A DNA stretch of 64,000 nt from Escherichia coli (lineage in GTDB: Bacteria; Pseudomonadota; Gammaproteobacteria; Enterobacterales; Enterobacteriaceae), in NCBI RefSeq assembly GCF_024298765.1, contig NZ_CP101210.1; one strand, 5' to 3'. The position numbers and the translations under genes are program-made. The notes under the pieces are model-generated. The model saw nothing but the letters and a program-made list of their open reading frames with translations. It did no database searches and had not been told where the DNA came from. Positions 58,234 through 59,490 of the stretch are shown here, piece after piece; the stretch's first letter is position 1, and every line of letters begins with the position of its first letter.

Positions 58234-59490
58234 ATGGGATCTGATGCGAAAAACTTGATGAGCGACGGGAACGTGCAAATTGTTAAGACCGGCGAGGTCA
58301 TTGGCGCGACGCAACTTACTGAAGGTGAGTTAATTGTTGAAGCTGGCGGAAGAGCCGAAAATACCGTGGTCACGGGGGCTGGCTGGTTGAAAGTGGCAAC
58401 CGGTGGGATCGCCAAATGCACACAGTACGGCAACAATGGCACGCTATCGGTCAGCGACGGTGCCATTGCCACAGATATTGTTCAGTCCGAGGGAGGCGCA
58501 ATTAGTCTCTCTACGCTCGCTACGGTTAATGGCCGCCATCCCGAAGGTGAATTCAGCGTTGATAAAGGTTATGCCTGCGGTTTGTTGCTGGAAAATGGCG
58601 GTAACCTGCGTGTACTGGAAGGACATCGCGCGGAAAAAATTATTCTCGATCAAGAGGGTGGCCTGTTGGTCAATGGGACAACCTCAGCGGTCGTGGTAGA
58701 TGAAGGTGGTGAATTGTTGGTGTATCCAGGTGGGGAAGCCAGCAATTGTGAGATTAATCAGGGCGGCGTTTTTATGCTGGCGGGGAAAGCCAATGATACG
58801 TTGCTTGCTGGTGGCACCATGAATAATCTCGGTGGTGAAGACTCTGACACTATTGTTGAGAATGGAGCCATCTATCGTCTGGGTACGGATGGTCTTCAGC
58901 TCTACAGTTCCGGTAAGACGCAAAACCTGTCCGTTAATGTGGGGGGGCGGGCTGAAGTGCATGCCGGTACGCTGGAAAATGCGGTAATACAAGGTGGGAC
59001 AGTGATCCTGTTGTCACCCACCAGCGCGGACGAAAATTTTGTAGTAGAGGAAGATCGCGCACCGGTTGAACTGACCGGTAGTGTTGCATTACTGGACGGC
59101 GCTTCAATGATTATTGGCTATGGCGCAGATCTGCAACAATCAACGATTACTGTACAGCAGGGCGGTGTGTTGATTCTCGACGGCAGTACGGTAAAAGGTG
59201 ACAGTGTCACTTTCAGTGTTGGTAACATCAATCTCAATGGCGGAAAACTGTGGCTGATCACTGATGCGGCAACGCAGGTGCATCTGAAAGTGAAACGCCT
59301 GCGTGGAGAGGGAGCCATTTGCCTGCAAACCAGTGCGAAAGAAATTTCACCTGACTTCATCAATGTGAAAGGGGAAGTTACTGGTGATATACACGTTGAG
59401 ATAACAGATGCCAGTCGGCAAACTCTGTGTAACGCACTGAAACTACAGCCAGACGAAGACGGGATTGGCGCAACGCTCCAGCCTGCGTAA
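58234..59490 (+). CDS. ydhQ: Autotransporter-passenger-like repeat protein YdhQ (418 aa)
   Basis: Gly/Thr/Asn-rich repetitive sequence typical of beta-helical adhesin passenger domains; no obvious C-terminal beta-barrel. Confidence 0.85.
   Translation: MGSDAKNLMSDGNVQIVKTGEVIGATQLTEGELIVEAGGRAENTVVTGAGWLKVATGGIAKCTQYGNNGTLSVSDGAIATDIVQSEGGAISLSTLATVNGRHPEGEFSVDKGYACGLLLENGGNLRVLEGHRAEKIILDQEGGLLVNGTTSAVVVDEGGELLVYPGGEASNCEINQGGVFMLAGKANDTLLAGGTMNNLGGEDSDTIVENGAIYRLGTDGLQLYSSGKTQNLSVNVGGRAEVHAGTLENAVIQGGTVILLSPTSADENFVVEEDRAPVELTGSVALLDGASMIIGYGADLQQSTITVQQGGVLILDGSTVKGDSVTFSVGNINLNGGKLWLITDAATQVHLKVKRLRGEGAICLQTSAKEISPDFINVKGEVTGDIHVEITDASRQTLCNALKLQPDEDGIGATLQPA

Follow-up and report, generated by a model that had tools for sequence, protein, structure and literature searches.

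The product of ydhQ, a gene at positions 58234-59490 of a 64,000-nucleotide stretch of Escherichia coli DNA (the window; NCBI RefSeq assembly GCF_024298765.1, contig NZ_CP101210.1), is probably a domesticated orphan passenger. It would be an Ag43/AIDA-I-type passenger that has lost its secretion parts, is kept by selection and works inside the cell, rather than an autotransporter that secretes an adhesin or a pseudogene. The gene itself is an already known and annotated E. coli core y-gene and as such offers little novelty.

58234-59490, + strand: ydhQ coding sequence, ATG start, 418 aa and stop; predicted orphan autotransporter-passenger beta-helix (list of open reading frames (ORFs), NF007409, Pfam, AlphaFold2 (AF2), Foldseek)

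The assignment follows from the NCBIfam equivalog NF007409 (= PRK09945), which matches residues 1-418 of 418 with 938.7 bits (cut-off 830), and the RefSeq label of the gene reads 'ydhQ: AIDA repeat-containing protein'. The length of 418 aa, the coordinates and the position next to a tRNA-Val pair, all given in the initial annotation of the window, are as described there; the pair, located by ARAGORN, lies 307 nt from the ydhQ start.

Fold and relatives of YdhQ

Three stretches of YdhQ match the Pfam family AIDA (PF16168, E 5.8e-28), and the strand-loop-strand repeat TIGR04415 is matched as well. Pertactin (PF03212, E 3.5e-6) is matched by residues 329-403, which cover profile positions 1-78 of 121 only. 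The NCBIfam passenger models for Ag43 (alignment over aa 25-211) and AIDA-I match in part. The AF2 model, built from 16 sequences, has a mean predicted local distance difference test score (pLDDT) of 88.6 and a predicted template modelling score of 0.86, with short strands throughout, the pattern of a parallel beta-helix. Its top Foldseek matches in the PDB are the Ag43 passengers 7KO9, 7KOH, 4KH3 and 7KOB together with TibA (4Q1Q), all at a probability of 1.0, followed by UpaB, pertactin, IgA1 protease and Hbp. A phmmer search of the PDB returns the identical five top proteins (E 2e-25 to 3e-13), aligning YdhQ aa 26-143 to Ag43 201-318. The initial annotation had taken YdhQ for a homologue of autotransporter passengers, and PF16168, the partial PF03212 match, the AF2 model and the Foldseek matches to Ag43 and TibA bear this out.

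58306-58878, + strand: AIDA/Ag43-type strand-loop-strand repeat region, about aa 25-215 (NCBIfam, phmmer against the PDB)
59023-59058, + strand: acidic loop, aa 264-275 (SADENFVVEEDR), predicted disordered, sequence conserved
59218-59442, + strand: partial Pertactin/autochaperone domain, aa 329-403 (Pfam); last third of the domain, linker and barrel absent

The repeat region contains the most conserved block of the protein (ATVNGRHPEGEFSVD.GYACGLLLENGGNLRVLEGHRAEK). In the acidic loop pLDDT falls below 50 at residues 264-268 and 270-275; the loop is near-invariant across the eight orthologues, and the corresponding loop of full-length relatives is shorter. Overall the protein is very acidic (isoelectric point 4.4, net charge -27). 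Its description as rich in glycine, threonine and asparagine is accurate for glycine, which is clearly high at 15.1%; threonine (7.9%) and asparagine (5.7%) do not stand out beside leucine, valine and alanine at 8-10% each.

The self-associating passenger alpha43 of Ag43 (Flu)/Cah shares both repeat type and beta-helix fold with YdhQ (phmmer E 1e-22 to 1e-25, YdhQ aa 26-214 against Ag43 aa 202-393), and both proteins carry the hairpin motif ATVxGxNxxGxFxVxxGxAxGxxLExGGxLxVLExH. Ag43, however, is surface-exposed, its autochaperone domain is complete, and it comes with signal peptide, linker and 12-stranded barrel; YdhQ shares none of these features, and the Ag43 model NF033177 scores only 89.6 bits on YdhQ against a cut-off of 1200. 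The glycosylated AIDA-type adhesins AIDA-I and TibA likewise have PF16168 and TIGR04415 repeats, with TibA (4Q1Q) matching in structure; in YdhQ the secretion apparatus and an adjacent heptosyltransferase gene are missing, and NF033176 reaches 54.7 bits (cut-off 1200).

In an exhaustive HMMER search, 1.84 billion cluster representatives yielded one full-length-type YdhQ representative (P0002) and many short fragments. The remaining long matches are autotransporters of 600-6000 aa with 26-38% identity to YdhQ. Those whose alignment extends across the C-terminal part of YdhQ (P0095, P0140, P0170 and P0172) contain Pertactin positions 2-120 of 121 followed by the beta-domain PF03797. P0095 (771 aa; AIDA, Pertactin and barrel) is collinear with YdhQ over almost the whole protein, its residues 72-486 corresponding to YdhQ 2-392 (28% identity, E 5e-28). 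The nearest non-orthologue, P0026 (1534 aa; ESPR start, 11 AIDA stretches, AC_1), reaches 38% identity in its best stretch (E 3.5e-75). Whereas P0095 continues into a complete autochaperone and a PF03797 barrel, and P0026 also goes on into the rest of the autochaperone, YdhQ starts about 70 residues into P0095 and ends about 26 residues short of the Pertactin domain end. By sequence comparison, YdhQ corresponds to an internal slice of a passenger; the signal peptide, a few rungs at the start, about 26 or more residues at the autochaperone end, the linker and the barrel are missing. The comparison with full-length family members that the initial annotation had proposed thus separates relatives with complete Pertactin and barrel from YdhQ with positions 1-78 of 121.

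Two further cluster representatives, P0065 (422 aa) and P0108 (503 aa), resemble YdhQ in length and domain content (AIDA and partial Pertactin). They were rejected as independent barrel-less equivalents on account of frameshift-type, out-of-frame tails: the tails are junk, whereas the C-terminus of YdhQ (KLQPDEDGIGATLQPA) is kept in all lineages.

The enterobacterial contig that encodes P0026 (L014, 1-13847) also bears a second complete autotransporter, a gene for a NEL-domain (E3-ligase effector) protein and one for a leucine-rich-repeat protein, and looks like a virulence-type island. Matches of YdhQ among PHROGs are long families without annotation, such as phrog_21473 (947 positions, E 2.4e-35, function not assigned). 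We presume that this and the other matched PHROGs represent prophage-borne Ag43-like autotransporters, which would hint that such genes travel with prophages.

Absence of secretion elements

Of the properties of a type Va autotransporter, YdhQ has the beta-helical passenger with AIDA repeats; a signal peptide, a complete autochaperone domain, and a linker with a 12-stranded barrel are absent. Neither PF03797 nor the ESPR signal extension was found in YdhQ with Pfam even at E<=1, and no beta-barrel is seen in the AF2 model; the lack of a C-terminal barrel asserted in the initial annotation is therefore confirmed on both grounds. The same applies to the signal peptide. The N-terminus (MGSDAKNLMSDGNVQIVK) is hydrophilic, 11-residue Kyte-Doolittle values within residues 1-60 peak at 1.25 (residue 45), and over the whole protein 19-residue segments reach at most 1.28. 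SignalP 6.0 predicts no signal peptide either (PMC13101318).

58222-58230, + strand: Shine-Dalgarno sequence AAGGA (58222-58226) and in-frame TAA (58228-58230), which exclude a longer N-terminus; block kept in all Escherichia lineages

The TAA stands in frame two codons 5' of the ATG, and stops occur in all three upstream frames. Downstream, the spacer between ydhQ and mdtK measures only 40 nt, and a terminator hairpin starts 7 nt past the ydhQ stop. The upstream stops and the nearby terminator therefore leave no physical room for a signal peptide or a barrel, and a barrel remnant between ydhQ and mdtK is impossible because the gap is only 40 nt. Coding remnants of the lost N-terminus were sought between 57927 and 58260 by tblastn, with the N-terminal 400 residues of each of ten full-length relatives as queries, and only chance matches came up (E>=0.09).

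No secretion partner gene was found among the neighbours of ydhQ, which encode a MATE pump, tRNAs and a small monooxygenase-like protein. Features of a TpsA protein (an N-terminal TPS domain and an adjacent TpsB) were likewise absent, with no Pfam match and with ydhR, the tRNAs and mdtK as neighbours. A role in a defence system was rejected, as PADLOC gave no match.

Conservation and selection

Orthologues of 418 aa occur in Shigella, E. ruysiae (or a ruysiae-like lineage), E. marmotae, E. albertii and Escherichia sp. E4742, and one further, more distant lineage has an orthologue of 419 aa with 71% identity. In all eight lineages (the window and seven others) the ORF is open at 418-419 aa with the same ends. 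Comparison of the window allele with the seven other lineages by the Nei-Gojobori method yields ratios of nonsynonymous to synonymous substitution rates (dN/dS) of 0.07-0.13 at dS values of 0.23-2.9. For ydhR the corresponding ratio is 0.08-0.10 in four comparisons out of five and 0.23 in the remaining one, the closest pair; for mdtK and cfa it is 0.01-0.02. The initial annotation had called the flanks ydhR and mdtK conserved, as they are. Constraint extends over the whole of ydhQ: in every 60-codon window the ratio of nonsynonymous to synonymous differences (pN/pS) lies between 0.09 and 0.25, with the lowest value (0.087) at codons 91-150, and 249 of 419 aligned positions are invariant, including the C-terminal tail and most of the acidic loop 264-275.

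About 3.1% of the single-base changes in the ORF produce a stop, and neutrality predicts 16-46 nonsense substitutions per comparison; without selection, an ORF still free of stops would have a probability between 1e-7 and 1e-20. YdhQ in its truncated form is a product under purifying selection and is not decaying. Candidate status as a pseudogene or decaying fragment was ruled out by the dN/dS of 0.07-0.13 and the eight intact orthologues of 418-419 aa.

Against E. albertii, the dS of ydhQ (1.18) is about twice that of mdtK (0.64) and cfa (0.60), a difference that weak codon bias, or else recombination with divergent alleles, could explain.

Across 5426 complete E. coli genomes, the block from ydhR through the tRNA pair and ydhQ to the mdtK end is present in 5413, as judged with a 2.3 kb query at a coverage of at least 80%. 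In NZ_CP022664.1 (E. coli FORC 064) the ydhR-ydhQ match is interrupted by about 1.3 kb of extra DNA with an IS3-family transposase.

Locus and origin

57356-57661, - strand: ydhR (PF08803), flank beyond the tRNAs
57769-57845 and 57850-57926, - strand: tRNA-Val(GAC) pair valV and valW (ARAGORN), transcribed away from ydhQ; pair present in all related loci
57951-58075, - strand: valVW promoter TTGCCA-17-TAATAT at 57980-57952 with conserved upstream block (promoter scan); shared core DNA outside the ydhQ insertion
58080-58233, + strand: ydhQ upstream region, present in Escherichia lineages only; middle variable, last ~95 nt conserved (alignment A2)
59497-59522, both directions: hairpin terminator with an 11-pair stem, bidirectional, common to ydhQ and mdtK
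59531-60904, - strand: mdtK, MATE efflux transporter; conserved flank, convergent with ydhQ

A scan of a genome collection with YdhQ returned one near-identical locus, and synteny was reconstructed from loci found through exact matches to the proteins of YdhQ orthologues and of MdtK homologues. The order ydhR, valVW, ydhQ, mdtK, ribC, cfa is common to all Escherichia loci. In Salmonella, Enterobacter and Pseudenterobacter, mdtK is followed 150-410 nt on by the tRNA-Val pair, and ydhQ is absent there. The comparison of synteny proposed in the initial annotation thus shows ydhQ in its place within Escherichia and missing from the loci of these three genera. The 71%-identity lineage has the convergent mdtK, the same promoter block and the same hairpin, which dates the arrangement to before the named Escherichia species. 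Identity of its mdtK DNA to that of E. coli is 83%, compared with 88% for E. albertii and 80% for Salmonella.

Homology between genera picks up again at about 58004-58030, in the valVW promoter region, which leaves about 1.5 kb of DNA confined to the Escherichia lineages between the mdtK terminator and the valVW promoter. Given its place beside a tRNA pair, the initial annotation had considered whether ydhQ is a remnant of an integrated element. Part of this stands: the DNA is lineage-specific and lies beside a real tRNA hotspot. The behaviour of a classical hotspot is, however, that of the 3' side of the pair (window 54800-57700) and not of the ydhQ side. At the 3' side are found type III secretion system export-apparatus genes in Salmonella; HSP20, glgS, ydcA and a type VI secretion system cluster in Enterobacter; and ydhS in Pseudenterobacter. 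The Salmonella genes are, as we take it, those of Salmonella pathogenicity island 2, whose location at valV is said to go back to Hensel et al. 1997. Integrases that target tRNA genes act at tRNA 3' ends; ydhQ is located on the 5', or promoter, side of valVW.

Among the window ORFs no integrase gene was found, and the direct repeats near ydhQ are only short and at chance level, in agreement with what had been stated at the outset. The GC content of ydhQ (~51%) is like that of its surroundings. No copy was found on genuine plasmids: the high-identity 'plasmid' matches are four records of 0.42-4.9 Mb, taken to be chromosomal sequence filed as plasmids, and the other plasmid matches are full-length autotransporters with less than 35% identity. 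An island remnant integrated at the tRNA is accordingly not supported, given the lack of an integrase and of meaningful repeats, the wrong (5') side of the tRNAs, the normal GC and the absence of plasmid copies. With a gene that is moreover not decaying, the integrated-element idea is at most a statement on the distant origin of ydhQ.

Within Escherichia the 3' side of the tRNA pair also varies: E. albertii lacks ydhS, and in E. marmotae the neighbours of ydhS are DUF2767, a YnhH-like gene and pykF, and neither ydhT nor ydhU occurs within the 4 kb displayed. The C-terminal half of YdhT (270 aa, 54802-55614, + strand) consists of short periodic repeats (…ARIATAGYAAQIASMGYSVRIGSVGFNSHIGSSGERARVAVTGNSSRISSAGDSSRIANTG…) suggestive of a beta-solenoid; the protein has no match in the Pfam copy used, and related loci carry a precomputed PF27195 YdhT_N label.

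Non-coding elements around ydhQ

The promoter of ydhQ presumably lies in the conserved last ~95 nt upstream; a simple promoter scan found no strong sigma-70 consensus promoter for the gene. In the valVW promoter region, conservation reaches to about 58004 when Salmonella, Enterobacter and Pseudenterobacter are compared, and across Escherichia the sequence is near-invariant up to about 58075. The block 58005-58075 is almost invariant in all Escherichia lineages, including the 71%-identity one, exceeds the ydhQ coding sequence in conservation and is probably an upstream activating region of the tRNA promoter. A peak of FlhDC binding in genomic SELEX (systematic evolution of ligands by exponential enrichment) has been placed in the ydhQ-valV spacer, and the listed sequence overlaps the start of this block (PMC9962212). 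The stem of the hairpin shared by ydhQ and mdtK is kept between species through compensatory paired changes (GCGCAACC…GGTTGCGC versus GCGCAATC…GATTGCGC, alignment A3).

Proposed history and cellular role

The ancestor of ydhQ was probably the passenger of a type Va autotransporter of the Ag43/AIDA-I type, and the present product is probably a soluble, acidic, right-handed beta-helix. The signal peptide, first rungs, last third of the autochaperone, linker and barrel would have been lost before the known Escherichia species diverged, leaving a stump in the ~1.5 kb between the mdtK terminator and the valVW promoter which was then retained by purifying selection. As judged from the sequence, YdhQ should stay in the cytoplasm because it has neither an export signal nor a pore and could not autotransport. 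This is consistent with a published fusion experiment, in which over-expressed pFAST-YdhQ without an added signal peptide gave fluorescence in the cytosol (PMC13101318).

Inside the cell the protein would most likely serve as a binding scaffold, its long beta-helix surface and conserved acidic loop binding a partner. YdhQ has been quantified by whole-cell proteomics (PMC6561319), co-purifies with EF-Tu (PMC2672614) and is among 17 uncharacterised proteins that crosslinked to RNA under ultraviolet light in orthogonal organic phase separation (OOPS; bioRxiv 10.1101/2023.07.03.547468). The scaffold is possibly associated with the translation or RNA machinery, a suggestion made because the EF-Tu co-purification and the match in the OOPS RNA interactome are the sole experimental pointers. 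That a passenger was stripped of its secretion elements before the Escherichia radiation and kept for a cytoplasmic task, possibly in association with EF-Tu, the ribosome or RNA, at which two proteome-wide screens hint, is put forward as a tentative proposal. The initial annotation had named evidence for a conserved cytoplasmic protein as what would overturn its view of YdhQ, and to a large extent such evidence now exists: conservation within Escherichia is shown here, while the cytosolic signal, the EF-Tu association and the RNA crosslinking come from the literature.

Alternative explanations

Several observations weigh against a selected function inside the cell. A net charge of -27 makes direct RNA binding by YdhQ unintuitive, and EF-Tu is a common contaminant of pull-downs. 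The ydhQ deletion strain serves as a neutral control and landing site. The gene was needed for early adhesion according to Roux et al. 2005, in the paraphrase given in PMC9110714; a compilation of vesicle proteomes includes YDHQ under COG3468; and placing YdhQ behind an exogenous signal peptide reportedly raised agarase and pFAST display, from which surface display was claimed (PMC13101318). The adhesion paraphrase, the vesicle listing and the display claim hint at an extracellular role. YdhQ could, for instance, leave the cell by lysis or in vesicles, bind to surfaces or to Ag43-family passengers of neighbouring cells and modulate early adhesion or aggregation. Such moonlighting would suit its closest similarity, to the self-associating Ag43 passenger, as well as the paraphrased deletion phenotype and the vesicle listing, and site-level positive selection, as expected of exposed proteins, has been claimed (PMC9110714). 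On the other hand, YdhQ has no export signal and no partner gene, the pFAST-YdhQ fusion remains cytosolic (PMC13101318), many cytoplasmic proteins occur in vesicle proteomes, and between species pN/pS never exceeds 0.25 in any ydhQ window. We consider this explanation unlikely, if the most plausible of those that compete with a domesticated intracellular passenger.

It is highly improbable that YdhQ still functions in type V secretion, as a substrate or an anchor of the 'leaderless autotransporter' kind that would leave the cell by a non-classical route or with the help of a translocator encoded elsewhere. The display gained behind an exogenous signal peptide speaks for it, but these read-outs could come from periplasmic leakage, and without the added signal peptide the fusion was cytosolic (PMC13101318). 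Pfam and AF2 reveal no barrel, the autochaperone is incomplete, and the neighbours of ydhQ are a MATE pump, tRNAs and a small monooxygenase-like protein; the claim of a surface anchor sits badly with a protein that has no barrel at all. Equally little credence is given to the idea that ydhQ was left behind, without a function, by an island that had integrated at the tRNA-Val hotspot, and that its ORF is open by chance. The lineage-specific DNA adjoining a tRNA pair whose cargo varies in other genera, an architecture truncated at both ends and a deletion without an obvious growth phenotype would all fit. Yet the gene sits 5' of the tRNAs, its GC is normal, neither an integrase nor repeats accompany it, the protein is expressed, and a remnant is already contradicted by the selection analysis, with dN/dS of about 0.1 and an ORF open in eight lineages where neutrality would predict 16-46 stops.

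Implications

The gene is routinely labelled an 'adhesin-like autotransporter' and has recently been used as an 'anchor' for surface display. Both labels are mechanistically unsafe because YdhQ has no translocator and no signal peptide. Nor is YdhQ junk, since selection has kept its exact truncated form across the genus. The practical effect is small, since ydhQ is a y-gene already known, is not essential and serves as a neutral site for integration; the interest that remains lies in why Escherichia should retain the passenger of an autotransporter when it has no means of transport. If its role is indeed cytoplasmic, YdhQ would clearly exemplify how the passenger of a secretion system can be recruited to a function inside the cell, with a change of both compartment and function for a fold that is regarded as strictly extracellular, and it would caution against inferring localisation from passenger-type repeats.

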